From: Planctomycetota bacterium
Lineage (GTDB): Bacteria; Planctomycetota; MHYJ01; WSZJ01
DNA length: 64,000 nt
NCBI GenBank assembly: GCA_038060895.1
Contig: JBBTCT010000022.1
Span: 192,001 to 256,000, forward strand
Direction of reading: 5' to 3'
Shown: piece after piece, positions 1 through 13,633 of the stretch
How the letters are laid out: each line of letters starts with the position of its first letter
How positions within the stretch are numbered: the stretch's first letter is position 1
The notes under the pieces: generated by a model
The model's database searches: none
What the model saw: only the letters and a program-made list of their open reading frames with translations
Told to the model about the DNA's origin: nothing
Made by a program: the position numbers and the translations under genes

Positions 1-34
1 GGATTCGAAGCGCTTCGCGACGGCGGTCGAGCAA

Positions 35-2746
35 ATGTGTGCGGGCGAAGGCTCATTGGCGGAGACGCCCGTTCCCACGACCCGCACTCCGGCGCCGCGC
101 CCTTCGCAGGCCGGAAATCCAACGATTCTCGTCGCGCTGAAGCAGAAGCTGGGAGTTGCCGGGACCACTCCTGAAGTCCCCCACAGCGAAACGGGGGCCG
201 ATCGCTTTTCACTGCGCGCGGACTCGCCCTTAGGACCCGAACACGAAAAGCTCAACGCCGTGATGACCGAGGTCGTTGGCACGACGAACTACTACAGCCC
301 GGATTTCAGGAAGCTCGCGTCAGGACGCGCCGTGCTCGACACCAGTCGACCCGAACGCGGCCGGATGCTCTTGGCTGGAGCCGAGCGTCGCATCGGCGTC
401 CTCCTTGCTCCGGCGGCCGCGTTGAACGAGCCTGCCGTCTGGCAATCGCGCTATGCGGCCGCCGCCACAGTTTCTGCCCTGCGGCACTCTCCCGTGGACC
501 TCGATCGCGCGCAGCTGTTCGATTTTCTTCTCTACCTGTCCGCGCTTCAGGGACGCGAGATTCTGAACTGGGCGGAAGACTTCCCACGATTCCTGACGCA
601 GTTGGAGAGCGAGTCGGCGAGGGATCCGCTGACCGAGGGCGAAAGATACGTGCTCTTCCTCTGGCGTGCATGCCTCATGTCGGGGCCCCCGCTCGGGACG
701 TCGTCTCAGGAAATTGCGAAGCTCACGGCCCTCATTGGCGATGGCGCGATGTTCTTTCTCGTTCCGGGCGAAGCCTGGAGCGACGCTTTGAACACCTCGC
801 TGACGGAATTGCCGGCGCGTGGACGCGCCGCATGGAAGGATCTCCTCGTGCACGCTTTGACGGCCACCGCGTCCAGACCTTCCGAAAAGTGGTTGAAGAC
901 GGGGCGAAAGCTGATCGAAGGGGTCGGAGCCGAAACTGCGCGCGACTTTCTCTCAGCCTGGCTCGCACTCGTCCAGAAGGGCCAGACTATCAGGAAGCCG
1001 GGCGCGGGAGACGTCATCCACGAAGAGAACGCGACCTGCCTGCGCGGCTTGCTGTGGCTTGTCCCGCTTCTTCTTCGCCGGGACGACCTGGCGCGGACTG
1101 TCTCCTCCGTCGCGCTTTCCGCATATCGAAAGATCCCGGGCGTCGGTCCCCGCGCAGTAAAAGTGGGAAACGCCGCTGTTTACGCCCTTTCCGAGCTCGG
1201 CTCGACGGACGCCGTCGGGCAGCTCGCCATGCTAAAGGTGCGTGTGAAGTTCGGAACCGCACAAAAGGAGATCGAGAAAGCCTTCGATGCTTCGGCACAA
1301 GCGCTCGGCTTGCCACGTGATCAGATTGAAGAAATGGGAGTTCCGTCCTACGGGCTTGAAGAAGTGGGGCGGCTCAAGGAATCGATCGGGCAGTACCAGG
1401 CCGAGCTCCTGGTGACGGGGAGCGACGCCGAGCTGAAGTGGTCGGACGCAGCTGGAAAGGCGCTCAAATCAGTGCCCGCTGCATTGAAGAAAGAGCACGG
1501 GGAAGAGTTAAAGGAACTTCAGCAGTCGCTGAAAGACATCCAGGCAATGCTGCCGGCTCAGCGCGACCGGATCGACGCTCTCTTTCTCTCGCAGAAATCA
1601 TGGCCGCTCGGGGCATGGCGCGAACGCTATCTGGACCACCCGCTGGTCGGCTCGATCTCGCGGCGCCTCATCTGGTGCGTCGACGGCGCGCCCGCACTGT
1701 TCCTGGACGGAACTGCATCCGATGTTCACGGGAAGTCATTCCGCGCTTCGGAAGGGGCGACGATCACCCTTTGGCACCCCGTCGGCCGGAGTGTCGTCGA
1801 GATAACGTCCTGGAGGCGCCGCCTCGAGTCGCTCGGAGTCACTCAGCCCTTCAAGCAGGCCCATCGCGAGATCTACCTGCTGACCGACGCGGAGCTGCGC
1901 ACGAGGACCTATTCCAATCGCTTCGCGGCCCACATCCTCCGGCAGCACCAGTTCAACGCTCTCTGTGCGGCTCGCGGCTGGAAGAACAAGCTGCGCCTCA
2001 TGGTGGACGACACTTACCCACCTGCGACTCGCGACCTGCCCCAGTGGGGGTTGCGAGTGGAGTTCTGGATCGAAGGCGTCGGCACCGAGTACGGCGGGGA
2101 CACGAACGAGTCCGGGGTCTACCTGCGCGTCGCCACGGATCAAGTGCGCTTCTACCGCAGAGAAACCGCCGAGAGCCGCGCCCATGCTGGCGGCGGCGGC
2201 TATGCAGCGAACGCCGGCGGGCCGGCGCACGGCAATGACATCGAACCACTGACTCTCGACCTCATTCCGCCGCTGGTCTTTTCAGAGAGCATGCGCGATG
2301 TTGACTTGTTTGTCGGCGTCGGCTCCGTCGGAAACGACCCCACCTGGCAGGATGGCGGTCCTCAGGGTGCCTTCCGCGCCTACTGGCAGAGTTACTCGTT
2401 TGGCGAGCTCTCCGCGAGCGCGGCGACGCGGCGGGAGGTGCTTCAGCGTCTCGTCCCGCGCCTCAAGATCGCCGACCGATGCTCCTTCGCGGACCGCTTC
2501 CTCATCGTGCGTGGTGAGAAGCGCACGTACAAAATCCACCTGGGCTCGGGAAACATCCTGATGGAACCGAATGACCAGTACCTCTGCATTGTTCCGGACC
2601 AGCGAGCTCGCTCGGCCGAAGAGAGCCTGTACCTCCCATTCGAGGGTGATTCCGTGCTCTCCATCATCATTAGCAAGGCGCTCCTTCTCGCCGCTGACTC
2701 GAAGATCAAGGATCCCACGATCGTGACGCAGATCGAGAAGGTCTGA
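35..2746 (+). CDS. DUF4132 domain-containing protein (probably 5'-truncated by the window edge)
   Basis: Motifs YLDHPLV, QPFKQAHREIY, FSESMRDVDLFV and YKIHLGSGNILM are typical of DUF4132 proteins; the frame is open back to position 2. Confidence 0.85.
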   Translation: MCAGEGSLAETPVPTTRTPAPRPSQAGNPTILVALKQKLGVAGTTPEVPHSETGADRFSLRADSPLGPEHEKLNAVMTEVVGTTNYYSPDFRKLASGRAVLDTSRPERGRMLLAGAERRIGVLLAPAAALNEPAVWQSRYAAAATVSALRHSPVDLDRAQLFDFLLYLSALQGREILNWAEDFPRFLTQLESESARDPLTEGERYVLFLWRACLMSGPPLGTSSQEIAKLTALIGDGAMFFLVPGEAWSDALNTSLTELPARGRAAWKDLLVHALTATASRPSEKWLKTGRKLIEGVGAETARDFLSAWLALVQKGQTIRKPGAGDVIHEENATCLRGLLWLVPLLLRRDDLARTVSSVALSAYRKIPGVGPRAVKVGNAAVYALSELGSTDAVGQLAMLKVRVKFGTAQKEIEKAFDASAQALGLPRDQIEEMGVPSYGLEEVGRLKESIGQYQAELLVTGSDAELKWSDAAGKALKSVPAALKKEHGEELKELQQSLKDIQAMLPAQRDRIDALFLSQKSWPLGAWRERYLDHPLVGSISRRLIWCVDGAPALFLDGTASDVHGKSFRASEGATITLWHPVGRSVVEITSWRRRLESLGVTQPFKQAHREIYLLTDAELRTRTYSNRFAAHILRQHQFNALCAARGWKNKLRLMVDDTYPPATRDLPQWGLRVEFWIEGVGTEYGGDTNESGVYLRVATDQVRFYRRETAESRAHAGGGGYAANAGGPAHGNDIEPLTLDLIPPLVFSESMRDVDLFVGVGSVGNDPTWQDGGPQGAFRAYWQSYSFGELSASAATRREVLQRLVPRLKIADRCSFADRFLIVRGEKRTYKIHLGSGNILMEPNDQYLCIVPDQRARSAEESLYLPFEGDSVLSIIISKALLLAADSKIKDPTIVTQIEKV

Positions 2747-3134
2747 GAGGCCCCGGACCCTGCGCGCTTAAGGCAGTCTCGGAATCTCGCCGTGCCGGAC
2801 GGAAGTAACTGCATCGGATAACCGAGCCCAGACCGGCGAGTTCTTCGTTGCTTGAAAAGGGCTCCCCGATCAGAACTCGAACTGATTGCGCGAGCATTTC
2901 GCGATGATGGCGCTTCATGCATCGAAGCTGTCAAGGCGCCGCGTCCACGGGACAGGGCCTACTCGTGCGCTCAGCGGAAAGTTCGGATTTCATCCAGACT
3001 GGTGACCAGACTGGATACGAATACGAACTATGGCCGAGATGGCGAAGGGCCTCCAGTTCAGCTAACTGAAGCCAGCGGCGGAAGTTGCATCAATTTCTGC
3101 CTGCGACAGCTGATAGTTCGTATTTCATCCAAAG

Positions 3135-3207
3135 TGCCCCCCGCAGGATTCGAACCTGCACAAGACCGGTTTTGAATCGGTCGCCTCTGCCGTTGGGCTA
3201 CGAGGGC
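3135..3207 (-). tRNA. trnL: tRNA-Leu(CAA), short variable loop
   Basis: Cloverleaf; anticodon loop TT-CAA-AA; T-loop TTCGAAT; A73. Confidence 0.85.
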
Positions 3208-3219
3208 CTGCGAATCAAA

Positions 3220-3290
3220 AGCTCCCGATGGGAATCGAACCCACACCCTCCTGCTTACGAGGCAGGTGCTCTCCTTTGAGCTACAAGAGC
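3220..3290 (-). tRNA. trnT: tRNA-Thr(CGT)
   Basis: Stem CCTGC/GCAGG, loop CT-CGT-AA; T-loop TTCGATT. Confidence 0.9.
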
Positions 3291-3293
3291 GGA

Positions 3294-3364
3294 TGCGCTC
3301 GTCAGGACTCGAACCTGCATCGGCCGGTTATCGACCGGCTGCTCTACCGCTGAGCTACGGGCGC
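3294..3364 (-). tRNA. trnI: tRNA-Ile(GAT), C33
   Basis: Stem GCCGG/CCGGC, loop TC-GAT-AA; single mismatches in the acceptor and T stems. Confidence 0.8.
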
Positions 3365-3367
3365 GCA

Positions 3368-3438
3368 AGCCTCTCGAGGGGGACGATCCCTCTTCTCCTG
3401 CCTGGGAAGCAGGCGTTCCACCGTTAAACCAGAGAGGC
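3368..3438 (-). tRNA. trnG: tRNA-Gly(CCC), atypical T-loop
   Basis: Perfect acceptor stem, loop TT-CCC-AG, U73; T-loop ATCGTCC. Confidence 0.75.
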
Positions 3439-3442
3439 GAAG

Positions 3443-3514
3443 TGCTCTCGGCAGGAATCGAACCTGCGGTCTTCAGCATGTCGGGCTGCCGCTCTTCCGC
3501 TGAGCTACGAGAGC
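3443..3514 (-). tRNA. trnV: tRNA-Val(GAC), C33
   Basis: Loop CC-GAC-AT; acceptor GCTCTCG/CGAGAGC; A73. Confidence 0.85.
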
Positions 3515-3581
3515 CGTTCGACTCGCTTCGCTCGCTCACGGCGGAGCAGACGAGTTCGGTCGAATCGCGGGCAAAACCAGA

Positions 3582-3652
3582 TGGTCCCAGGAGGAGTTGA
3601 ACCTCCGTCGCCGGTATGTGAGACCGGCATTCTCCCGTTGAACTACGGGACC
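3582..3652 (-). tRNA. trnV: tRNA-Val(CAC)
   Basis: Stem CCGGT/ACCGG, loop CT-CAC-AT. Confidence 0.9.
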
Positions 3653-3654
3653 GA

Positions 3655-3727
3655 TGCTCGGGGGAGGATTCGAACCTCCACTGACCAGCTTCTGAGACTG
3701 GTGCCTCTGCCGTTGGGCTACGCGAGC
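3655..3727 (-). tRNA. trnL: tRNA-Leu(CAG), short variable loop
   Basis: Loop CT-CAG-AA; 5-nt variable region TCAGT; A73. Confidence 0.85.
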
Positions 3728-3856
3728 GTTGTGGTTGTCGCTGGGGACGACTGGATGTGGGCGGCCGTGCGGCGGAGGCGAAGGGTGCCCCGGCGCGCGC
3801 CTGGTTCATCAGCACTCTTGCGCCCGCAGCCTCCGACGCCGGGCGCCCACGTCCAG

Positions 3857-3932
3857 TCGGGATGGCTGGATTTGAACCAGCGATCTCCTCGTCCCGAACG
3901 AGGCGTGTTGAGCCAGGCTTCACTACATCCCG
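3857..3932 (-). tRNA. trnP: tRNA-Pro(CGG)
   Basis: C1-G72, A73, loop TT-CGG-GA. Confidence 0.9.
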
Positions 3933-3934
3933 GA

Positions 3935-4006
3935 AGCGACTGGTGGGACTCGAACCCACGTCGACCACCATGGCAAGGTGGCGCTCAGCCTCTGAGCCAC
4001 AGCCGC
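3935..4006 (-). tRNA. trnG: tRNA-Gly(GCC)
   Basis: Loop TT-GCC-AT, U73. Confidence 0.9.
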
Positions 4007-4020
4007 GTTTTGATTCAAGA

Positions 4021-4093
4021 AGCCCTCGGCGGGGATCGAACCCGCATCAGCTTGTTTGGAAGACAGGCGCCTTCGCCGTTCGGCCACGAGAGC
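4021..4093 (-). tRNA. trnG: tRNA-Gly(TCC)
   Basis: Loop CT-TCC-AA, U73. Confidence 0.85.
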
Positions 4094-4109
4094 GGAATTG
4101 TTGTAAGTG

Positions 4110-4185
4110 GGCCCTCGACGGGAGTCGAACCCGTCGTCTCCCTTCCTCATACGGAAGGGTGTCTCGCCGCTCGACTACGAGGACC
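4110..4185 (-). tRNA. Atypical tRNA: 8-bp acceptor (G-1:C73, His-like) and 20-nt anticodon arm; anticodon undetermined (possibly ATG)
   Basis: Acceptor GGTCCTCG/CGAGGGCC; normal D and T arms (TTCGACT); anticodon arm CCCTTCC-GTATGA-GGAAGGG. Confidence 0.7.
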
Positions 4186-4189
4186 GTTA

Positions 4190-4273
4190 TGGGTGCGGCA
4201 GGAGTTGAACCTGCTGAGCCCGCGAGGGCTGCTGGGTTACGGCCAGCTCAGTTTTCCGATTCCGTACACACCC
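4190..4273 (-). tRNA. trnY: tRNA-Tyr(GTA), C33, long variable arm
   Basis: Loop CC-GTA-AC; variable hairpin AGCCC-TCGC-GGGCT. Confidence 0.85.
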
Positions 4274-4320
4274 TGAGTTCGCGCGACGGGTCGGCGAGTC
4301 GCGCAATTGACGGTGGGCGC

Positions 4321-4457
4321 TTCGACTCGTGTCCGGGCGCTTCGCGCCCGGCACTCGCTCAGGGCATTCGCCTCGCCAGAGCCACCGTTCGCGGTCGGCT
4401 CCGCCATGAGCGAGCCCCCGTGAGAGGCGCGGTGCGCCTCTCACGGTGCGAGTCGAA
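4321..4457. repeat. REP-like palindromic repeat pair (TTCGACTCG...CTCGCTCA core)
   Basis: Inverted copies at 4321-4365 and 4403-4457; related copies at 3517-3542 and 5284-5339. Confidence 0.7.
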
Positions 4458-4529
4458 TGGAAGCGGCAGGGTTCGCACCTGCGTCGGCTCGTTTAGGAAA
4501 CGAGGGCCTGTCTACTCGGCCACACTTCC
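4458..4529 (-). tRNA. trnR: tRNA-Arg(CCT), A18/G55
   Basis: Loop TT-CCT-AA; D-loop AGTAGAC; T-loop TGCGAAC. Confidence 0.85.
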
Positions 4530-4531
4530 GA

Positions 4532-4602
4532 TGGGGACGGAGGGAGTTGAACCCGCATCACGAGGTTCGTAGTCTCGTGTCCTTCCGTTGGACGACGTCC
4601 CC
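4532..4602 (-). tRNA. trnR: tRNA-Arg(ACG)
   Basis: Loop CT-ACG-AA; A20 present. Confidence 0.85.
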
Positions 4603-4608
4603 GACTCA

Positions 4609-4681
4609 TGGTGAAGGGTGGGATCGAACCACCACATCCTGGTCTTCAGCCAGGCGCTCAGACCCTCTGAGCTACTTCACC
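4609..4681 (-). tRNA. trnF: tRNA-Phe(GAA)
   Basis: Perfect stems; loop CT-GAA-GA. Confidence 0.9.
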
Positions 4682-4686
4682 GCAAA

Positions 4687-4757
4687 TAGGCGCGGCGGGA
4701 ATCGAACCCGCTCTTTCAGGTTGAAGGCCTGGGTGCCTGCCATTAGCTGACGCGCCC
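4687..4757 (-). tRNA. trnE: tRNA-Glu(TTC), C33
   Basis: Loop CC-TTC-AA; T-loop TTCGATT. Confidence 0.8.
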
Positions 4758-4768
4758 GCACGATTGGA

Positions 4769-4841
4769 TGGGAGCGGAGGGATTCGAACCCTTCCTCGTC
4801 CGGGTTAAAAATCCGGTGCTCAGCCACTGAGCGACGCGCCC
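4769..4841 (-). tRNA. trnK: tRNA-Lys(TTT)
   Basis: Loop TT-TTT-AA; a few stem mismatches. Confidence 0.8.
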
Positions 4842-4849
4842 TTGCGCAA

Positions 4850-4921
4850 TAGAGTCGGTGGGACTTGAACCCACATAGGCCTGCTTAAGAGGCAGGAGCT
4901 CGGCCGTTGAGCGACGACTCT
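4850..4921 (-). tRNA. trnK: tRNA-Lys(CTT)
   Basis: Perfect stems; loop CT-CTT-AA. Confidence 0.9.
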
Positions 4922-4925
4922 GTAA

Positions 4926-4998
4926 TAGGGATGGAGGGATTCGAACCCTCGTCTCCAGGCTGAGAACCTGGCCGCCTTGGCCACTGGCCGACATCCCC
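4926..4998 (-). tRNA. trnE: tRNA-Glu(CTC)
   Basis: Loop TT-CTC-AG. Confidence 0.85.
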
Positions 4999-5009
4999 GG
5001 GCGTAGAAA

Positions 5010-5080
5010 CAGGGGGGGCTGGATTCGAACCAGCAGAACGAGTGTCAGAGGCTCGGGGGTTACCGTTACCCGACCCCCCT
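5010..5080 (-). tRNA. trnQ: tRNA-Gln(CTG)
   Basis: Loop CT-CTG-AC; G73. Confidence 0.85.
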
Positions 5081-5087
5081 CTTTTGA

Positions 5088-5158
5088 CAGAGGCGGAAGG
5101 AATCGCACCCTCATCACCGGACTTGGAAACCGGAGTCCTGCTGTTGGACGACGCCTCT
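5088..5158 (-). tRNA. trnW: tRNA-Trp(CCA), A18/G55
   Basis: Loop TT-CCA-AG; A1-U72, G73; T-loop TGCGATT. Confidence 0.85.
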
Positions 5159-5163
5159 ACGAA

Positions 5164-5235
5164 TGGAAGTGGTGGGAATCGAACCCACAGTCTCCTGCTT
5201 GCGGAGCAGGCGCCTTCCCGTTGGGCTACACCCCC
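5164..5235 (-). tRNA. trnA: tRNA-Ala(CGC), C33
   Basis: G3:U70 identity pair; loop TC-CGC-AA. Confidence 0.9.
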
Positions 5236-5276
5236 GAATGCAAGTCCTTCAACTGGTCAAAGCCTCCGTCCCGTCT

Positions 5277-5339
5277 CGGCTCCGCCATGAGCGAGCCCCC
5301 GTGAGAGGCGCGAAGCGCCTCACATGGGGGCGAGTCGAA
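5277..5339. repeat. REP-like repeat, near-identical to 4396-4457
   Basis: cggctccgccatgagcgagcccccgtgagaggcgc...gcgagtcgaa is shared by both copies. Confidence 0.8.
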
Positions 5340-5411
5340 TGGAAGCGGCGGGAATCGAACCCGCATGGGCCTGTCTGCCGGACAGGTGCCTTCCCGTTAG
5401 GCAACGCCCCC
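5340..5411 (-). tRNA. trnA: tRNA-Ala(GGC), C33
   Basis: G3:U70; loop CC-GGC-AG. Confidence 0.9.
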
Positions 5412-5546
5412 GACGTTTTCGTCGTTTTCCATTCCCGTGCGCGAGGATGTCGTGCGGCGCAGCGAGGAGGTGCGTCGGGCCCGCGCCGGCCATTTGGCGC
5501 GGAGTCCGGCGCGCTTCCTCGCGAAGCCGCACGACATCCTCGCGCA

Positions 5547-5638
5547 CGGGGAGTGGGGTTTTCTACCCCCGGGGGCCGCCTTGAGGGCGGCCCGCCTCGT
5601 TAGCAATGAGGTGCTTTAAGCCGCTCAGCCACCTCCCC
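5547..5638 (-). tRNA. trnS: tRNA-Ser(GCT), degenerate T-arm (possible pseudogene)
   Basis: Loop TT-GCT-AA, long variable hairpin; T-loop reads TAGAAAA. Confidence 0.7.
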
Positions 5639-5666
5639 GGATTTGCGCGATGGGATCGCGCATTGA

Positions 5667-5755
5667 AGGAAGGTGAAGGATTCGAACCTTCGTCCCCCTC
5701 GCGGGGGCTCCTGTTTTCGAGACAGGCGCGATAAGCCGGACTCTGCCAACCTTCC
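5667..5755 (-). tRNA. trnS: tRNA-Ser(CGA)
   Basis: Loop CT-CGA-AA, long variable arm. Confidence 0.9.
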
Positions 5756-5760
5756 GTGGA

Positions 5761-5833
5761 CAGGGGCACCAGGATTCGAACCTGGATCAACCTCCTTAAC
5801 AGGGAGGTGACTTACCGGTTAGCCCACACCCCT
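5761..5833 (-). tRNA. trnN: tRNA-Asn(GTT)
   Basis: Loop CT-GTT-AA; G73. Confidence 0.9.
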
Positions 5834-5950
5834 AACTTGCACGGGCCTTTCCGCTCGTGCCGCGTGCGGCGGAGCGAATCTGGACGCCGCGCCCGCGCCG
5901 GACTTTCGGCGCGGCGTGCGGCGTCCGGATTCGCGGAGCCGCATGCGGCA

Positions 5951-6024
5951 CGAGGGCGACGGGATTTGAACCCGTGATCTCCGCCGTGACAGGGCGGTGT
6001 CTTGAGCCTCTGGACGACGCCCCC
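5951..6024 (-). tRNA. trnD: tRNA-Asp(GTC)
   Basis: Loop CT-GTC-AC; G73. Confidence 0.92.
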
Positions 6025-6028
6025 AGAA

Positions 6029-6100
6029 TCGCGCCTGCAGGAATCGAACCTGCCTGCTCCTGGTTCCAGGCCAGGCGCGCAGCCACTGCGCCAAGACGCG
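6029..6100 (-). tRNA. trnP: tRNA-Pro(TGG), C33/A37
   Basis: C1-G72, A73; loop CC-TGG-AA. Confidence 0.85.
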
Positions 6101-6216
6101 AGGAATTGCTTTTTTGCCGGGCCGTTCCATTTGCGGAGGGGTGGGAGTCGAAGGAACGCGGAGTCGCGCGGCCGTTCGTGCGACTCCGCGTTCCTTCGAC
6201 TCCCACCCCTCCGCAA

Positions 6217-6290
6217 AGCGCGGAAGTGGATTCGAACCACTGCGCACCGGTTTTGCGGACCGAGCCGTTGAGCCACTCCGGCATCCGCGC
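6217..6290 (-). tRNA. trnC: tRNA-Cys(GCA), C33
   Basis: Loop CC-GCA-AA; U73. Confidence 0.85.
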
Positions 6291-6296
6291 GCTTGA

Positions 6297-6367
6297 TAGC
6301 GGGAAGGGGAATCGCACCCCTGTGTGCGGCTTATGAGACCGCCGATCAGCTACTGATCCATCCCGCA
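6297..6367 (-). tRNA. trnM: tRNA-Met(CAT), unpaired 1x72, A18/G55
   Basis: Loop CT-CAT-AA; T1xT72 mismatch; T-loop TGCGATT. Confidence 0.8.
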
Positions 6368-6567
6368 GGGATTTGAGGTGGGAGGTTGTTGATTTGCGAG
6401 GCGAGACGAACGGCCGCCTCGCCTCGCACATCAACAACCTCCCACCTCAAATCCCCGGTACGGCAATGACCGCACGAACAGGGGAGAAAAGAACCGGCCC
6501 GGGCGCGTCGCCGTGAGGGGGGGAGGGGCGGACGTCGGGGGAGGGCCATTGTTGCCCGGGCCGGGGA

Positions 6568-6640
6568 TGTGTCCGGCAGGAGTCGCACCTGCAACCTCCA
6601 GATTCGGAGACTGGGGCTCTTCTGGTTGAGCTACAGACAC
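6568..6640 (-). tRNA. trnR: tRNA-Arg(CCG), A18/G55
   Basis: Loop CT-CCG-AA; T-loop TGCGACT. Confidence 0.85.
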
Positions 6641-6789
6641 AGGGAAGAAGGGTCGTTTTGCCGTTCGCCAATTCGCGCTTCGGGATGATGAAGCGACGGG
6701 GTCGGGGCGAGCGGCCACACTTGAAGGCAAGCTGACCAGAGATTGTGAGCGAGCTCCGACTCCGTCGCTTCATCATCCCGAGGCGCGAA

Positions 6790-6860
6790 TTGGGGCGGCA
6801 CGACTCGAACGTGCACGGCGAGGTTCAAGGGCTCGCGGCCTACCTTTAGCTGACGCCCCA
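6790..6860 (-). tRNA. trnQ: tRNA-Gln(TTG), C33
   Basis: U1-A72; loop CC-TTG-AA. Confidence 0.85.
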
Positions 6861-6994
6861 GAAGTTTCGTTGCCGTCCTGAATGCAGGGGTGTGATCGAT
6901 CGATTGGCTTGTCGTTCGGCCCGGGCGGAGCCGGCCGTATGGCGGAGGTCGGGACGAACGACGAGCCAATCGATCGATCACACCCCTGCATTCA

Positions 6995-7067
6995 TCGGGG
7001 TTGAAGGAGTTGAACCTTCATCTGCGCATTGAGGGGGCGCCGTCCTCAGCCATTAGACGAAACCCCA
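6995..7067 (-). tRNA. trnE: tRNA-Glu(CTC), second copy, C33
   Basis: Loop CC-CTC-AA; T-loop TTCAACT. Confidence 0.75.
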
Positions 7068-7089
7068 GGAAGGCGAGGGCAGCAGAGAT

Positions 7090-7230
7090 TCAGAAAAACC
7101 GGCTCCCGATTCCCGGGTTGGGAATGGGATGACATGGAACCGGAAGCCGGTTCGGGAAGATCCGCCGGTTATCAAAGATCACTTCGCGCTGCGTCGGTTG
7201 ACCGCAACTTGCGCTTCCATCTCCTGGCAT
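7090..7230 (-). CDS. Putative 46-aa leader peptide (MPGDGSASCGQ...GSRFF)
   Basis: AGGAGG 6 nt upstream of the ATG; the ORF runs through a terminator-like hairpin and stops just after its U-tract. Confidence 0.4.
   Translation of the reverse strand: MPGDGSASCGQPTQREVIFDNRRIFPNRLPVPCHPIPNPGIGSRFF
7094..7150 (-). terminator. Intrinsic terminator or attenuator hairpin inside the tRNA array
   Basis: 15-bp stem CCGGCTTCCGGTTCC/GGAATCGGGAGCCGG followed by TTTTT. Confidence 0.55.
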
Positions 7231-7245
7231 GACGTTCCTCCTGCA

Positions 7246-7316
7246 AGGGACCGGTCGGGGTTGCACCGACGTCTCCCGGGCCACAGCCGGGCGGTCTGCT
7301 GTTGAGCTACAGTCCC
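7246..7316 (-). tRNA. trnH: tRNA-His(GTG) without G-1:C73, A18/G55
   Basis: Loop CT-GTG-GC; position -1 is C and N73 is T; T-loop TGCAACC. Confidence 0.8.
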
Positions 7317-7375
7317 GTGGCGGCGCCGGTCTGGAAGGTTGATGAGTGAAGCGGCGAAAAGGTTCGCGCGTGTGG

Positions 7376-7409
7376 AAAACGAAAACGCCGCCGAGTGATC
7401 GGCGGCGTT
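7376..7409 (-). terminator. Intrinsic terminator downstream of the small secreted-peptide gene
   Basis: AACGCCGCCGA-TCAC-TCGGCGGCGTT followed by TTCGTTTT. Confidence 0.7.
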
Positions 7410-7987: not shown

Positions 7988-8512
7988 ATGAATCTCACCA
8001 CCACCGAAAAGAAGTTCATCCTCCACTGGGGCGAAATGGGAACCCGCTGGGGGATCAACCGCACCGTCGCCCAGGTCCACGCCCTTCTCTACATCTCGGG
8101 CCGCCCCGTCCCCGCCGATGAAATCGCCGAGACGCTCTCCGTCGCGCGCTCCAACGTCTCCACCTCGCTCCGCGAACTCCAGGGCTGGGGCCTCGCCAAG
8201 GTGACCCACGTCCTCGGCGACCGCAGGGATCACTTCGAGACCTTCCAGGACGTCTGGGCCATGTTCAAGCTCGTGGCGCAGGAGCGGAAGCGCCGCGAGA
8301 TTGACCCGACGCTGGCGATGCTGAAAGAGGCGATCGAGCAGGCGAACAAGGATGGCGAGAAGGCGGCCAGGGAGAGACTCGAGCACATGCTGGAGTTCTT
8401 CGAGACGCTGACGGCCACCTTCGACGAGTTCGTGAAGATGTCGCCGGGGGCGCTTCGGAAGGTCGTGAAGTATGGCGGGAAGCTGCAGAAGCTGCTGGGG
8501 GTCGGGACTTAG
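7988..8512 (+). CDS. GbsR/MarR family transcriptional regulator
   Basis: FILHWGEMGTRWGINRTVAQVHALL...ARSNVSTSLRELQGWGL signature. Confidence 0.9.
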   Translation: MNLTTTEKKFILHWGEMGTRWGINRTVAQVHALLYISGRPVPADEIAETLSVARSNVSTSLRELQGWGLAKVTHVLGDRRDHFETFQDVWAMFKLVAQERKRREIDPTLAMLKEAIEQANKDGEKAARERLEHMLEFFETLTATFDEFVKMSPGALRKVVKYGGKLQKLLGVGT

Positions 8513-9816: not shown

Positions 9817-10221
9817 GTGGAAGTACTTTTCGCTGCGTTCGCCGGGATGCTGCTGGCGCCGATGCTGTTTCAGCCTCTCGTGGTGCTGTGGTGTCTGAGC
9901 CGGGTGACCGGTCCCGTTCGGCCGGAACCCAGCGCGGACCTGAGACAGGGGCTGTTGGCCTTCTGGGTACTAGTGACCGTCGCCCAAGTCGGTGGATGCG
10001 CTCTCATGCTCTGGCTCATGAATCGCAGAGCTTTGTGCGACGTCCTGACGCCTCTCGCGGCCGCCTTCTTCGGCTGGGGACTTTGGCCCGCGCGCCCTGT
10101 CGTGCTGCTCCGAATTCTGCCGACCCTTAGTCGACCGATCCGCTTCGTGGTTGTCGCAGGAGAGACGCTGATGACTGCCATTTACGGGGCCTGCACTGTT
10201 GCCTTGATTCGCAATTGGTAG
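9817..10221 (+). CDS. Hypothetical membrane protein
   Basis: Hydrophobic ORF inside the operon. Confidence 0.55.
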   Translation: MEVLFAAFAGMLLAPMLFQPLVVLWCLSRVTGPVRPEPSADLRQGLLAFWVLVTVAQVGGCALMLWLMNRRALCDVLTPLAAAFFGWGLWPARPVVLLRILPTLSRPIRFVVVAGETLMTAIYGACTVALIRNW

Positions 10222-10232
10222 GAGGGACCACG

Positions 10233-10640
10233 ATGACTCTCATCACCGCTATCCGGCTGGCCGGCCTGCTCCAGCTCGCGCTCATCCCGGTGAACTTCGT
10301 CGCTCCCTACAAGCTCCGCTACGCCGCGAGCCTCGCCGGCGCGACGCCGGTCGTGCGCAACATCTTCTACGTGCACGCGGGCTACATCGTCTTCGTACTC
10401 GCCGGCCTCGGCGCGCTTTGCCTCGGCGCGGCGGACTTCCTGGGAAGCGGCGCCCCGCTCGCCCGCTGGACCTGCGGTTACCTCGCCGCGTTCTGGGGAA
10501 TCCGCGTCCTCGTGCAGATCTTCTACTACGACCGTGAAGAACGCCGGCGCAACCGCGCGCTCGACGTCGCGTTCCTCACGTTGTTTGGGTTCCTGGCGGC
10601 GGTGTTCGCCGCGGCGGCGAGCACAGGAGGCCTGCGATGA
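10233..10640 (+). CDS. Hypothetical 4-TM membrane protein
   Basis: RBS GGAGG; resembles 10765-11199 (FW..R..V..FYY/F). Confidence 0.75.
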   Translation: MTLITAIRLAGLLQLALIPVNFVAPYKLRYAASLAGATPVVRNIFYVHAGYIVFVLAGLGALCLGAADFLGSGAPLARWTCGYLAAFWGIRVLVQIFYYDREERRRNRALDVAFLTLFGFLAAVFAAAASTGGLR

Positions 10641-10762
10641 TCGTCTTCTTCTTGCACCCACTGACGCACGTGCTGGGCGTAACCCTGATAGCGATCTCAC
10701 TCGGAGCTCTCGCGATCCTCGTCGTGACGTACCACGCGCGGCGCTACGGGTACTGGAGGTGA
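10637..10762 (+). CDS. Small single-TM protein (41 aa), below the ORF-track cutoff
   Basis: ATGA overlap with the upstream stop; RBS GGAGG; MIVFFLHPLTHVLGVTLIAISLGALAILVVTYHARRYGYWR. Confidence 0.55.
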   Translation: MIVFFLHPLTHVLGVTLIAISLGALAILVVTYHARRYGYWR

Positions 10763-10764
10763 CC

Positions 10765-11199
10765 ATGCTTCCCGAACTCATGCCGAGGTGCCTTCTGATG
10801 GCCGGTCTTGGACACTTCCTCGTCCTCGCCGCAAGCTTCCAGGTCCCTGCGCGTCTGGGCTGGAAGGAAGAACTCGCGCGCCTCCGCCCCCTGAACCGCA
10901 AGCTGATGTGGATCTACGGCGGATTTACCGTCCTCACGATCGTCGCGTTCGGCTTCCTGACGCTCTTCCTCCGCGACGAAATGCTCCTCGGCGACAAGGC
11001 CGCGGTCGCGCTCGCGGCGTTCATCGGCGTGTACTGGGCCGCGCGCATCGGCGTCGACGTGTTCTATTTCAGTCACGACGACTGGCCGAAGGGGCGCCAG
11101 TTCGTGGTCGGGCATGCGCTGCTGATGATGCTGTTCGCGTTTCTGGCGGTGACGTACTTCGGGCTCGTCGTGTGGCAGCTCTCGGGGGGCGCGCGATGA
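10765..11199 (+). CDS. Hypothetical 4-TM membrane protein
   Basis: RBS GGAGG; VPARLGWKEELARLRPLNRKLMWIYGGF. Confidence 0.8.
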   Translation: MLPELMPRCLLMAGLGHFLVLAASFQVPARLGWKEELARLRPLNRKLMWIYGGFTVLTIVAFGFLTLFLRDEMLLGDKAAVALAAFIGVYWAARIGVDVFYFSHDDWPKGRQFVVGHALLMMLFAFLAVTYFGLVVWQLSGGAR

Positions 11200-12044
11200 G
11201 AACGGACTTCGATGAGCAGTGCACCGTCGGTTGCACCGCCTTCATCGGCCTGGGGATTCTCTGCATTTCGGGACTCGCCCTGGCGAGCTCGGCCATCGAA
11301 TTCAGCATCGTCGTGATCGCCGTCGCGGTCTTCGGGCTTTTCATTGGCCTTGCGATCACCTTGATCGCAGTGGACAGCCCGCGCCCGGCTATCAATTTCA
11401 GGTCGAAGCGAAACGCCTTGCCCGCGCCGGCAAGCCCGGCCTCCCTTCGCCTCGAGCCTGTCCCGCATGCGGAACCCATCTGGACCCGCGGAGGCCCGGC
11501 GATGCGCGCCCACGTCGAGGCCCGCACGCGAATCGAGACGATCTTCCTCGCACTCATGGCCTCCGTGGCCGTCCAGGCGATTGCAATGACTGCGCTCTTC
11601 GCGCGCAGCGACGAGAATCCCACGATGGCCGCTCTGGGCGCAGTCGCATTCCTTCCCGTCGCCCTGGCGACGCTGACCGCCTCGCGCCGCGATGGAGGCG
11701 ACTGCGCGGTGACCACCGCGACCCTGGTCGCCGTGCTCGGCGGCGGTTCCAACATCGGACTCTCCATCACCGTCTGGTTCGCCGCGCCCCCTTTCGGCCA
11801 GCTCGACCCCACGCTGTTCACGGAACATCCCGGCCGCGACTTCCTCTGGAGTCCCTTCGCAGGCGCCGGGGGACCCTGGTTCCTCTCCGGCCTCGCCACA
11901 CTTCTCGTCGCCCGCGCTTCACGCCCCGGTGGATGGCCGGGGAGTTCCATCCATTCGCGCGAAGCGGCGGCGTGGTGGATGAACGGCGTGCCGGTCATCA
12001 GCCTGCTGGCCTACGGATTCGCGATGCAGATGGCACGCCGCTGA
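11196..12044 (+). CDS. Hypothetical multi-pass membrane protein
   Basis: ATGA coupling; several hydrophobic segments. Confidence 0.55.
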   Translation: MRTDFDEQCTVGCTAFIGLGILCISGLALASSAIEFSIVVIAVAVFGLFIGLAITLIAVDSPRPAINFRSKRNALPAPASPASLRLEPVPHAEPIWTRGGPAMRAHVEARTRIETIFLALMASVAVQAIAMTALFARSDENPTMAALGAVAFLPVALATLTASRRDGGDCAVTTATLVAVLGGGSNIGLSITVWFAAPPFGQLDPTLFTEHPGRDFLWSPFAGAGGPWFLSGLATLLVARASRPGGWPGSSIHSREAAAWWMNGVPVISLLAYGFAMQMARR

Positions 12045-12100
12045 TCGTCGGCGCCCGGCGTTTCTGGTCCGACCCAATCGCTGCCCTTACGATCTCGACG

Positions 12101-13633
12101 ATGCACTCCGAGCTCGCCTACCTCTTTCGCCATGCCCTCCTGCGCGACGCGGCCTACCAGCTGCAGCTCCCCGGGGACCGCGCGCGGCTGCACGGGCTGG
12201 CGTTCGCGGTGATCGAGAAAGTGTGCGGCGGTCGCCCGCCGGAGCCGCCGGCTCTCGGGCACGCGGAGAGTCCGCCCGAACGTCCTCATCCGACGGACGG
12301 ATTTGCGGAAGCGCTCGCGGAGCATGCCGGGCTCTCCGACGGAAGCCTGAGTCCGGCGGGGATCCTGCGAGTGCGCCGGCTTTACCTGCGCCGCGCGGCG
12401 GAGTTCGCGGCGAAACGTTTCCGCCCAGGCGCGGCCGTCCGCCTGTGGGAGCAATTCGCAGGACTCTCGGAAGAGCGCGAGAAAGCGGCCGCGCTCCTGC
12501 AGGCGGGCCGGCTCGCGATCCAGGATGGCCGGACAGGGTCGGTGGAAGCGCACCTTTCGACGGCACTCGAGCTCTTTCGAAAGAGTGGCGAAGCGCGCGG
12601 CGAGGGCGCGGCGCTGGGTTACTTGTCGAGCGTCTTCGGCGAAAACGGCCAGGTCGAGAAGGCGGAGCGCATGGCGGAAGACGCGCTGCGCGTGCAGCGG
12701 GCGGCCGGGGACCGGAAGGCCGAAGGGTCCACGCTGGGGAACCTGGCGACGCTTCTGATGCGGACGGGCCGGACCGGGCCGGCGGAACGGGTGTATCGGG
12801 AGGCGCTGGACCTCCACCGTGAAACCGGGAATCGGCATCAGGAGGCGATCGCTCTGACGAACCTGGCCAGTCTCCAAAGGGACATGGGGCAATTCCGGGA
12901 AGCCGAGCCCGCATATCAGGAAGCGTTGAAGATCAATCGGAGTCTCGGCAATCGGCGCTCCGAGGGGATGGCACTTGCGAACCTGGCGATGCTCTTCGAC
13001 TTGACGGGAAGGCGCTCGCAGGCGCTGGACGGCTTCGAGCGCGCCCTCGCCATCGCCCGGGAGGTCGGGAGCAGGCTGCTGGAGGCCAGCGTCCTGGGCA
13101 ACCTCAGCAACATCTTCCTGGACACAGGCCCCCCAGGCCAGGCGGCGGACCTGCTGGCGCGCTCGCTGTCGATCGCTCGCGAGATCGGAAACAGGCACAC
13201 GGAAGCTCTTCTCCTCGCGAACCTCGCCCGTCTGCACCTGCGCGAGGGGCGGCTCGGCGAAGCCGGGCAGGGATTCGCGGAAGCGATGGCGATTCTTCGC
13301 GACATGGGAGACACGAGATCCGTGGGGATCATGGAAGCAAACCTGGCCGGCCTGCACGAGCGCGCGGGACGGATCGAGGAGGCCGAGGCCTCGCTCGGCA
13401 GGGCCCGGGAGCTGCTCCGGCAGGTCGGCGATCTGCAGACGGAGGCCAGCGTGCTGTGCGCGAGCGCCATTCTGCAGGTCCAGCGGGGGAGGCGCGACGC
13501 CGCGCTTCCCGACTGGCAGGAAGGTGCCCGCAGGCTGCGCGACTGCGGCGATGTCCAGGAACTGGAGCGCCAGATGTCCGCGATGAAGGAGGCATGCGGG
13601 AAGGCCGGCGTGCCTGCGCTTCCGGACGAATGA
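12101..13633 (+). CDS. TPR-repeat protein with a STAND-type N-terminal motif
   Basis: YLFRHALLRDAAYQ followed by about 8 TPRs (GNRR.EG..L.NLA). Confidence 0.85.
   Translation: MHSELAYLFRHALLRDAAYQLQLPGDRARLHGLAFAVIEKVCGGRPPEPPALGHAESPPERPHPTDGFAEALAEHAGLSDGSLSPAGILRVRRLYLRRAAEFAAKRFRPGAAVRLWEQFAGLSEEREKAAALLQAGRLAIQDGRTGSVEAHLSTALELFRKSGEARGEGAALGYLSSVFGENGQVEKAERMAEDALRVQRAAGDRKAEGSTLGNLATLLMRTGRTGPAERVYREALDLHRETGNRHQEAIALTNLASLQRDMGQFREAEPAYQEALKINRSLGNRRSEGMALANLAMLFDLTGRRSQALDGFERALAIAREVGSRLLEASVLGNLSNIFLDTGPPGQAADLLARSLSIAREIGNRHTEALLLANLARLHLREGRLGEAGQGFAEAMAILRDMGDTRSVGIMEANLAGLHERAGRIEEAEASLGRARELLRQVGDLQTEASVLCASAILQVQRGRRDAALPDWQEGARRLRDCGDVQELERQMSAMKEACGKAGVPALPDE

Follow-up and report, generated by a model that had tools for sequence, protein, structure and literature searches.

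This study concerns a tRNA array located near one end of a 64,000-nucleotide stretch of DNA (hereafter the window; positions 192001-256000 of C22, a contig of 462 kb) from a planctomycete draft genome of 5.4 Mb, with 66% GC and 86.5% completeness. This genome is labelled G000, and its seven same-genus relatives are labelled G001 to G007. The array was found with ARAGORN to hold 34 tRNA genes in 4183 bases, which corresponds to 8.1 genes per kb. In the available text of Tran et al. (2016, PMC4758250), a tRNA array unit comprises at least 20 tRNA genes at a density of at least 2 genes per kb, a definition within which the array falls with 34 genes and 8.1 per kb. The redundancy that marks L-arrays (Santamaria-Gomez et al. 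2021) was observed as well, since a housekeeping gene with the same anticodon was found for 29 of 33 array tRNAs. Some of the four array anticodons without a housekeeping match may merely be unassembled, given the completeness of the genome. The gathering score of Rfam RF00005 (29 bits) was reached by 33 of the 34 genes, the tRNA-Ser(GCT) at 5546-5639 being called by ARAGORN only. A standard Rfam scan passes 30 genes, and sensitive filters add tRNA-Tyr (38.4 bits), a gene with an 8-base anticodon loop (36.7 bits) and tRNA-Gln(TTG) (38.1 bits). Ten genes of the array carry C instead of U at position 33, immediately before the anticodon (C33 and U33 hereafter), and an eleventh such gene lies before the window. 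The array and its C33 genes are as follows.

3134-7316, reverse strand: tRNA array of 34 genes, all 20 amino acids, L-array type (ARAGORN; Rfam RF00005; orthologous arrays in 7 of 7 same-genus genomes)
3294-3364, reverse strand: tRNA-Ile(GAU), loop UCGAUAA, C33 at 3333 (C33 in 7 of 7 orthologs)
3442-3514, reverse strand: tRNA-Val(GAC), loop CCGACAU, C33 at 3483 (C33 in 6 of 6 orthologs)
4190-4273, reverse strand: tRNA-Tyr(GUA), class II, loop CCGUAAC, C33 at 4241 (C33 in 6 of 6 orthologs)
4687-4757, reverse strand: tRNA-Glu(UUC), loop CCUUCAA, C33 at 4726 (C33 in 5 of 6 orthologs)
5164-5235, reverse strand: tRNA-Ala(CGC), loop UCCGCAA, C33 at 5204, G3:U70 (C33 in 5 of 6 orthologs)
5340-5411, reverse strand: tRNA-Ala(GGC), loop CCGGCAG, C33 at 5380, G3:U70 (C33 in 4 of 4 orthologs)
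6028-6101, reverse strand: tRNA-Pro(UGG), loop CCUGGAA, C33 at 6069, A37 rather than G37 (C33 in 4 of 4 orthologs)
6217-6290, reverse strand: tRNA-Cys(GCA), loop CCGCAAA, C33 at 6257 (C33 in 4 of 6 orthologs)
6790-6860, reverse strand: tRNA-Gln(UUG), loop CCUUGAA, C33 at 6829, in this genome only (C33 in 0 of 5 orthologs)
6995-7067, reverse strand: second tRNA-Glu(CUC), loop CCCUCAA, C33 at 7034 (C33 in 3 of 5 orthologs)
C22:182028-182102, before the window: tRNA-Leu(GAG), last gene of the array, split off, with C33

U33 and the U-turn are textbook invariants of the anticodon loop. When the base before the anticodon was read by script, the 33 seven-base loops of the array were found to have U33 in 23 cases and C33 in 10, the 34th gene having the 8-base loop. 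The sequence-only reading from which this work started had named exactly these ten tRNAs and had stated that position 33 is solely U or C in the normal-sized loops; both statements proved correct. Covariance-model alignments set the C33 bases of the array on the U33 column of the model, and all ten C33 genes pass Rfam RF00005, with scores of 38.1-64.7 bits. The array was also recovered in DNA-run contigs from two other studies, and no difference was listed at any of the ten C33 sites, so that C33 is not a sequencing error. Outside the array, ARAGORN made 50 calls, of which eight poor or selenocysteine calls, all with U33, were dropped. C33 was found in 1 of the 42 good calls that remained, compared to 10 of 33 in the array (Fisher p = 8e-4).

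With regard to the other positions, C32 is present in 22 of 33 array tRNAs and in 12 of 42 housekeeping tRNAs (p = 1.2e-3), and the C/(C+T) ratio of the D-loop is 0.66 in the array versus 0.41 in the housekeeping set. Stems, variable loops and T-loop positions 59-60 have the same composition in both sets, and no array tRNA was found to carry C at U8, U54 or U55. The mean pairwise difference between orthologs is 0.10 at position 33 and 0.01-0.02 at U8, U54, U55, C56 and A58. The C32/C33 state and the U depletion of the D-loop are specific to the array. Of 29 comparisons between array and housekeeping tRNAs with the same anticodon, 21 showed a difference in the anticodon loop, chiefly at positions 32, 33, 37 and 38; a loop that differs from that of the host tRNA is the criterion used by van den Berg et al. 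(2023). From the sequence, the recurrence of C33 had been read as suggesting selection or editing, and a condition was given on which this could fail: an equal shift by GC mutational bias at other invariant U positions (U8, U54), together with a lack of conservation in orthologous arrays. This condition did not hold, since U8, U54 and U55 are never C and C33 is largely conserved in the orthologous arrays. A general GC bias was rejected as an explanation, on the grounds that U8, U54, C56 and A58 are fixed, that the shift is local to positions 32 and 33 and the D-loop, and that C33 occurs in phage tRNAs at 48-51% GC. C33 is real and heritable, and general GC bias fails to explain it.

A DNA search of 41 related genomes recovered the array in all seven same-genus relatives, in 16-26 matching pieces each. 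The 33 class genomes of other genera gave 0-7 scattered tRNA-sized matches each and no array. In all seven relatives the array adjoins the same divergent MarR-family gene and the same DCC1-like/MBOAT gene, so it occupies one conserved chromosomal locus, which indicates vertical descent within the genus. The species of this genus are well separated, as the amino-acid identity of the MarR protein is 73-94%. A C before the anticodon is present in 55 of the 208 ARAGORN calls made on the fetched arrays of the relatives. The 11 C33 tRNAs of the present genome, including the split-off tRNA-Leu(GAG), gave 62 ortholog comparisons, 49 of which showed C33 in the ortholog as well. There was no exception (27 of 27 comparisons) among the tRNAs for Ile, Val(GAC), Tyr, Ala(GGC) and Pro(UGG), in which C33 is old, judging from this distribution; the anticodon stem of tRNA-Ile is wholly replaced in G006 and G007, yet its C33 is kept. 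C33 is partly retained in Glu(UUC), Ala(CGC), Cys, Leu(GAG) and the second Glu(CUC), and in Gln(UUG) it is a recent U-to-C change, since none of the five orthologs has it. The U33 tRNAs of the array keep U in 125 of 128 comparisons, and C33 limited to a single species was also found in Leu(CAG) of G001, Lys(UUU) of G004 and Gln(CUG) of G006. Every change at position 33 between orthologs with seven-base loops is a C/U transition, and the position changes less than four-fold sites, which differ in 21-28% of comparisons. This pattern suggests a position at which a pyrimidine is required and either one is accepted.

Across the eight genomes, 3695 of 3808 stem cells of the array tRNAs are paired (97%), and compensatory double changes are found in 96 of 578 stem pairs, versus mismatch-only variation in 21. 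Given that the stems stay paired, with compensatory changes, the array tRNAs are under purifying selection. These observations bear on the possibility that the C33 genes are decaying pseudogenes, or that they have a role outside translation, as decoys for tRNA nucleases (tRNases) or as donors for aminoacyl-tRNA-dependent pathways. Some features of the array fit this explanation: one slot is unstable, with differing odd loops in four relatives, several array tRNAs have unusual elbows and mismatches, and roles outside translation are suggested for L-array tRNAs in the available part of PMC8421152. Nevertheless, the ten C33 tRNAs have intact cloverleaves, at 38-65 bits compared to the threshold of 29 bits, their stems are preserved by compensatory changes, and both array tRNA-Ala (CGC and GGC) retain the G3:U70 alanine identity pair. 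Anticodon positions 34-36 show a variability of 0.00 within ortholog groups, which is partly by construction, since the groups were built by shared anticodon. For the ten C33 genes, the pseudogene reading was rejected on the basis of intact folds and compensatory change, and we regard this group of explanations as a whole as very unlikely.

The unstable slot, at 4109-4184 on the reverse strand, holds the tRNA-like gene with the 8-base anticodon loop, CGUAUGAG. The same slot holds a tRNA-Gln(UUG) in G001, a Gln(UUG)-like gene with A33 in G005, a gene with a 6-base loop in G003 and an Asn-like gene with G33 in G004. It is clearly unstable and fast-evolving, and it may be decaying. The unusual elbows are found in five array tRNAs, Arg(CCU), Trp, Met, Arg(CCG) and His (4458-4529, 5086-5159, 6297-6367, 6565-6641 and 7246-7316, reverse strand), in which the T-loop starts with UGC, G replacing U55, and the D-loop GG is missing in all five. 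The G55 state is kept in the orthologs (variability 0.02 at position 55), and its combination with the missing D-loop GG suggests a co-varying, non-standard elbow.

Outside the array, C33 was found solely in the housekeeping tRNA-Val(GAC) (C7:152758-152831), which has the loop UCGACAC and no stem mismatches. The same loop was found in tRNA-Val(GAC) of all 28 class genomes with a fetched locus, and in 13 of 16 Val(GAC) genes from the other classes of the phylum. An exact search for the 17-base C33 anticodon arm of this tRNA, with one genome per species and 185,579 species, returned at least 46 tRNA-Val(GAC) genes. The matches listed include Planctomycetota (several orders), Spirochaetota, Acidimicrobiia and other Actinomycetota, Lentisphaeria, Anaerolineales and others; 74 of the 120 matches listed are not tRNAs, and the search shows occurrence across phyla rather than frequencies. 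Because a class-wide housekeeping tRNA has C33, C33 need not mean that a tRNA is switched off. In these lineages, C33 would be compatible with an essential decoding role, or it may be handled by an undescribed activity.

Such an activity was part of the sequence-only reading, which had proposed an unknown C-to-U editing step as an activation switch and had pointed to deaminases co-occurring with such arrays as its sign. Under this explanation, the C33 genes would encode pro-tRNAs in which C33 is converted to U, or modified, by an unrecognised enzyme. The cytidine deaminase (CDA)-fold genes of the genome, five in number, are standard: TadA, Cdd, RibD, an anti-phage dCTP-deaminase-like protein and a small Cdd-like frame. 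Two THUMP proteins, RlmL-like and ThiI, are also present. No CDAT8-like deaminase-THUMP fusion was found among these five CDA-fold and two THUMP frames of the 86.5%-complete genome, and no deaminase was found near the array in the fetched flanks of the eight genomes. The TadA gene directly adjoins tRNA-Arg(ACG) on contig C10, and the anti-phage dCTP deaminase-like frame, at C24:202223-203467, scores 360 bits against a cut-off of 400 bits. Editing of a tRNA C has precedents: C8 is edited to U8 by CDAT8 in Methanopyrus. Mitochondrial trnW C33 is edited to U in Isoetes, according to the available part of PMC3074146. The small cytidine-deaminase-like frame (C42:20952-21419; 96.5 bits, under the cut-off of 131 bits) is an extra candidate, and the conserved C33 of an essential tRNA-Val would suit constitutive editing. 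Against these points stand the free interchange of C and U between close species, which is unexpected for a dedicated editing step, and the presence of C33 in phage clusters of unrelated hosts. The proposed switch is unsupported, and we consider editing or modification at position 33 to be highly improbable.

Phage tRNA clusters provided the closest parallels to the array. In Mycobacterium phage Myrna, whose array has about 60% GC, C33 is present in 1 of 29 tRNAs, its tRNA-Val(GAC). The Val(GAC) of the window is 84% identical to this phage tRNA, with the same loop, and 66% identical to the housekeeping copy of its own genome. Streptomyces phage Satis has C33 in 0 of 10 tRNAs. In IMG/VR, the 17-base anticodon arm of the array tRNA-Tyr was found in 3 phage tRNA-Tyr genes, out of 14 pattern matches, and its U33 version in 23, out of 46 matches. 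Two clusters that were reached via their C33 Tyr genes contain further C33 tRNAs: a phage fragment of 48% GC (G133) has C33 in 4 of 20 tRNAs, namely His, Thr, Tyr and Cys (loop CCGCAAC), and a complete 103-kb phage of 51% GC (G134) has it in 2 of 24, Tyr and Pro(UGG) (loop CCUGGGA). Five phage contigs that were picked for U33 Tyr have C33 in 6 of 97 seven-base loops. Five of these six are in a single contig, G136, in the tRNAs for Met, Asn, Ala(CGC) (UCCGCAU), Ala(GGC) (CCGGCAG) and Ala(UGC), and the sixth is a Val(GAC); the Ala(GGC) loop of G136 is identical to that of the array. The loops shared by the array and other clusters are CCGUAAC of Tyr, CCGGCAG of Ala and CCCUCAA of Glu, and C33 in Val and Cys also recurs. 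On this evidence, accessory tRNA sets of moderate GC show C33 repeatedly, and some of the isoacceptors concerned are the same. The array tRNAs are as close to phage tRNAs as to the tRNAs of their own host, or closer, and their similarity to phage tRNAs suggests a foreign origin of the array. Public plasmids and phages yielded just single-tRNA matches with 1-3% coverage, and no array homologous to this one.

The recurrence of particular isoacceptors raises the possibility of decoding tuning, in which C33 loosens a pre-formed loop, allowing strong, G/C-rich anticodons to avoid over-tight binding to the ribosome. A similar tuning role is reported for the 32-38 pair of Escherichia coli tRNA-Ala(GGC). 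C33 recurs in Ala(GGC/CGC), Pro(UGG), Val(GAC), Cys(GCA) and Glu(CUC) of unrelated clusters, C32 and G38 of Ala(GGC) could form a Watson-Crick pair, and the conservation of C33 in housekeeping Val(GAC) across phyla would argue for a constrained functional state. However, the weak anticodons of Ile (GAU) and Tyr (GUA) are among the most stable C33 tRNAs, and the cell carries housekeeping copies of the same isoacceptors with U33. Many tRNAs with strong anticodons and C34 also keep U33: C33 is present in 2 of 16 C34 tRNAs versus 8 of 17 others, a difference that is not significant (Fisher p = 0.057). Decoding tuning is therefore, in our judgement, an unlikely explanation.

The neighbourhood of the array comprises a candidate regulator and an island that carries a tRNA-repair cassette.

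7988-8512, forward strand: candidate regulator of the MarR family, with transcription directed away from the array (Pfam MarR_2; beside the array in 7 of 7 relatives, 73-94% amino-acid identity)
1-3133, forward strand: right end of a 13-kb island, DUF4132/DUF7737 protein (Pfam)
C22:185462-187234, forward strand: Hen1 (NCBIfam TIGR04074, 729.7 bits; cut-off 340)
C22:187099-189729, forward strand: Pnkp (NCBIfam TIGR04075, 1388.9 bits; cut-off 750)

Leu(CAA) and Leu(GAG), in this order, are the last two genes of the array in the relatives; in the present genome they are separated by the 13-kb island. Hen1 and Pnkp lie about 2.3-6.5 kb before the start of the window, and the island also contains unnamed reading frames. 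Both genes pass their equivalog models, and they are adjacent and in one orientation, as expected of a bacterial Pnkp-Hen1 pair. The available part of PMC4411300 describes that Pnkp-Hen1 repairs tRNA cut by ribotoxins and that methylation at the junction prevents recutting. The same Hen1-Pnkp cassette was found in G006, directly after Leu(GAG) (G006:C89:23753-27750), its Pnkp containing one in-frame TGA. Between G000 and G006 the cassette has a DNA identity of 88.6%, versus about 77% for the flanks. An unrelated tRNA array of 20 genes was found 3 kb from a Pnkp with 66% identity in a metagenome locus of 68% GC (L328, at 5034-7039 and 10001-12589). This locus has C33 in 2 of 21 tRNAs, Gly(GCC) and Glu(CUC), and the Glu(CUC) loop, CCCUCAA, is that of the second Glu(CUC) of the window. 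The link between arrays and Pnkp is recurrent, not general. A PADLOC defence scan of the unnamed reading frames of the island gave no matches within it; in the conserved flank, PADLOC detected an SspH/HerA-like ATPase. The genome contains 10 reading frames with a PIN domain (VapC-like).

With regard to transcription, a strong terminator-like hairpin followed by a T run was observed at 7370-7409 on the reverse strand, upstream of His, the gene with which the array starts, at a distance of about 55-95 bases. Because of this hairpin, the promoter of the array is expected within the last 50 bases or so before 7316, and no sigma-70-like site was found in those roughly 50 bases. The spacers in the 5' half of the array contain six long inverted repeats with arms of 37-45 bases, which are 86-98% complementary.

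5434-5550, 5854-5954, 6130-6217, 6368-6455, 6668-6793 and 6879-6994: inverted repeats in the spacers of the array 5' half

At least one of these repeats is conserved in the relatives, as seen from both-strand matches in the DNA search, and the repeats trigger spurious matches to microRNA-precursor models.

Several array tRNAs show further departures from bacterial habit. Bacterial tRNA-Leu normally has a long variable arm. The three array tRNA-Leu (3134-3207, 3655-3727 and C22:182028-182102) are 73-75 bases long and have no such arm; the housekeeping Leu genes measure 82-87 bases, and the array Tyr and Ser tRNAs retain their long arms. The usual bacterial state of Pro(UGG), Leu(CAG) and Arg(CCG) is G37 (m1G), from which the array departs, with A37 in Pro(UGG) (6028-6101), Leu(CAG) (3655-3727) and Arg(CCG) (6565-6641). 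The array Phe(GAA) (4609-4681) has G37. Among the housekeeping genes, G37 is present in Leu(CAG) and in one of three Pro(UGG) genes, Phe has A37, and no Arg(CCG) for comparison was found in the 86.5%-complete genome. Most bacterial tRNA-His genes are marked by an encoded G-1:C73 pair. In the ARAGORN fold, the array tRNA-His (7246-7316, reverse strand) has C at -1 and a U discriminator, and thus lacks this encoded pair.

Taken together, we tentatively favour a reading in which the C33 tRNAs are working, unedited backup tRNAs of phage type, whose U-poor anticodon loop helps them to escape tRNA nucleases. The array would be a supernumerary phage-type tRNA operon of the L-array kind, vertically inherited in one genus and providing a full backup decoder set. 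Its tRNAs fold normally and are probably expressed, charged and used in decoding without editing. Position 33 would be constrained only to be a pyrimidine, in a lineage whose ribosome presumably already works with C33 through the housekeeping tRNA-Val(GAC). The U depletion at positions 32 and 33 and in the D-loop could then be a trace of selection exerted by enzymes whose target, for attack or for marking, is the anticodon loop; tRNases from toxin systems, defence systems or competitors are examples. The array may thereby supply a tRNA pool that is harder to cleave, possibly under control of the MarR-family protein, and the neighbouring Pnkp-Hen1 would repair and 2'-O-methylate those tRNAs that still get cut. 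In the accessible parts of the literature, phage tRNAs are proposed to escape anticodon nucleases through loop mutations (PMC10264068), and L-arrays are tied to translational stress and, conceptually, to repair by RtcB (PMC8421152). Selection for nuclease evasion had already been suggested from the sequence. Of this suggestion, evasion retains indirect support, from the loops that differ from their housekeeping counterparts (21 of 29), from phage C33 at about 50% GC and from the presence of Pnkp-Hen1 at the end of the array; strong positive selection for C33 received none.

Several observations weigh against this reading. In the concatenated-tRNA tree, G006 and G007 stand apart from the other six genomes, and the changes at position 33 that could be polarised on it comprise 4 from U to C versus 2 from C to U, with 4 of unknown direction. 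At four-fold sites of the adjoining MarR gene the identity is 0.72-0.79, to which the C33 retention of 49 of 62 comes close. Such behaviour speaks against a strong directional selection for C and has a near-neutral look. The array Val(GAC) is 78-82% identical between species, versus 93-100% for housekeeping Val(GAC); the array tRNAs evolve several times faster than housekeeping tRNAs, and relaxed constraint would give the same result. Only two of the eight genus genomes yielded Pnkp; the six in which it was not found have a completeness of 81-94%. Among the best 80 metagenome loci with Pnkp relatives, one holds an array, and the other 79, many of them short, hold 0-1 tRNA genes. Neither a PrrC/RloC-type nuclease (Pfam AAA_13) nor any nuclease that reads U33 was found in the 86.5%-complete genome. 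In addition, the gamma-toxin anticodon nuclease cuts a U33C substrate as well as the wild type, as given in the available part of PMC2275089. Finally, the RNA data consist of a single metatranscriptome run (X17), with two exact contigs (3516-3820 and 4813-4974) that contain no C33 site and may reflect DNA carry-over.

Many of these observations are expected under near-neutral drift, in which the array tRNAs see little use and U33 is only weakly selected. Either pyrimidine would then be adequate, GC-biased mutation would supply C, and C33 as such would be without function. We consider drift possible, and nearly as likely as the favoured reading. It accounts better for the balance of gains and losses, which is roughly even per site, as well as for a C33 retention close to that of four-fold sites and for the far faster evolution of array tRNAs. 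The variability of position 33 (0.10) is about that of an ordinary stem position, C33 in Gln(UUG), Leu(CAG), Lys(UUU) and Gln(CUG) is limited to single species, and another array, at 68% GC, has C33 in just 2 of 21 tRNAs. In contrast, drift accounts less well for the local shift, for the phage parallels at about 50% GC and for the repeated isoacceptors. The shift from U to C is limited to positions 32 and 33 and the D-loop and is absent from variable loops, T-loop positions 59-60 and stems, and the other invariant positions remain fixed. C33 recurs in phage clusters of 48-51% GC, and of 13 C33 tRNAs that had not been selected by the search, 7 are in the 11 core anticodons of the genus, compared to about 3.6 expected by a rough estimate that was not computed. 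Five tRNAs retain C33 in all 27 comparisons. Moreover, third codon positions have about 88% GC, so that a neutral site should be mostly C rather than 30% C.

The favoured reading can be extended to a broader one, in which U33 is not universally needed in bacterial elongators. The tRNA-Val(GAC) with its 'C-turn' would be a normal decoder in whole phyla (Planctomycetota-like, Spirochaetota, Acidimicrobiia and others), and phage and array tRNAs would exploit this tolerance to strip uridines from the loop, which together with Pnkp-Hen1 would give a two-layer protection against ribotoxins. We consider this extension rather unlikely. In its boldest version, an undiscovered modification or C-to-U editing at position 33 would make the C33 tRNAs work.

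In the bacterial genus studied here, between roughly one quarter and one third of a complete spare tRNA set keeps C33. Together with C33 in the class-wide housekeeping tRNA-Val(GAC) and in phage clusters, this makes it directly testable to what extent the U-turn depends on uridine itself and to what extent a pyrimidine is enough. A function in protecting the tRNA pool would predict such a combination of a variant loop restricted to accessory tRNAs with a tRNA-repair operon at the array, and the finding also offers a concrete handle on the purpose of supernumerary tRNA arrays. If C33 truly blocks particular tRNases, it would be a simple and portable route to tRNase-resistant tRNAs.

Among natural tRNAs with a residue other than U33, the available part of PMC5041475 names as exceptions only C33 of eukaryotic initiator tRNAs and G33 of Candida tRNA-Ser. 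The eukaryotic initiators are, likewise, natural working tRNAs with C33; they enter the P site directly, whereas the C33 tRNAs of the window are encoded by bacterial elongator genes and are accompanied by a housekeeping Val(GAC) found across phyla. With the C-to-U editing of Isoetes trnW C33 (available part of PMC3074146), the array shares a gene-encoded C where U is universal; of the enzymes that could carry out such editing, neither a deaminase-THUMP fusion nor a PPR-type factor was found in this genome. In the literature searched, C33 was not found described for bacterial elongator tRNAs, array tRNAs or phage tRNAs. Position 33, C33 or U33 is not mentioned in the tRNA-array papers that were text-searched, nor is position 33 in the main texts of PMC10264068 and PMC11555353.

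The phage clusters of tRNAs that are predicted to resist host tRNases (PMC10264068, PMC11555353) resemble the array in that it likewise forms a full set whose loops mostly differ from those of the host. The published phage cases, as far as the available text of these two papers goes, concern the cleavage-site positions of known VapC, PrrC and colicin targets. In contrast to the phage clusters, the array is chromosomal, is inherited within a bacterial genus and has no adjoining phage genes. The Hen1 and Pnkp genes form the same adjacent, co-oriented pair as the operon described in PMC4411300, but here the pair is embedded in or beside a tRNA array, an arrangement that is unmentioned in the available part of that paper. 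In the array literature searched, linkage to Pnkp-Hen1 was likewise absent, and a link to RtcB is present only as an idea (available part of PMC8421152). Heritable C33 in arrays and phage clusters, a C33 housekeeping tRNA-Val across phyla and the linkage of an array to Pnkp-Hen1 are thus all absent from the literature searched.

With L-arrays (PMC4758250, PMC8421152), which the available text of PMC8421152 reports from Planctomycetes among other phyla, the array shares a long, dense, non-periodic run of tRNA genes and redundant isoacceptors. L-arrays are also characterised by a patchy distribution with spread by horizontal transfer, and by silence in normal growth with induction under translational stress; the distribution seen here, with the array in all 8 genomes of the genus and in none of the 33 other class genomes searched, looks patchy. 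The array differs from them in occupying one conserved chromosomal locus throughout a genus, which points to vertical descent. The array is a new member of the L-array kind.

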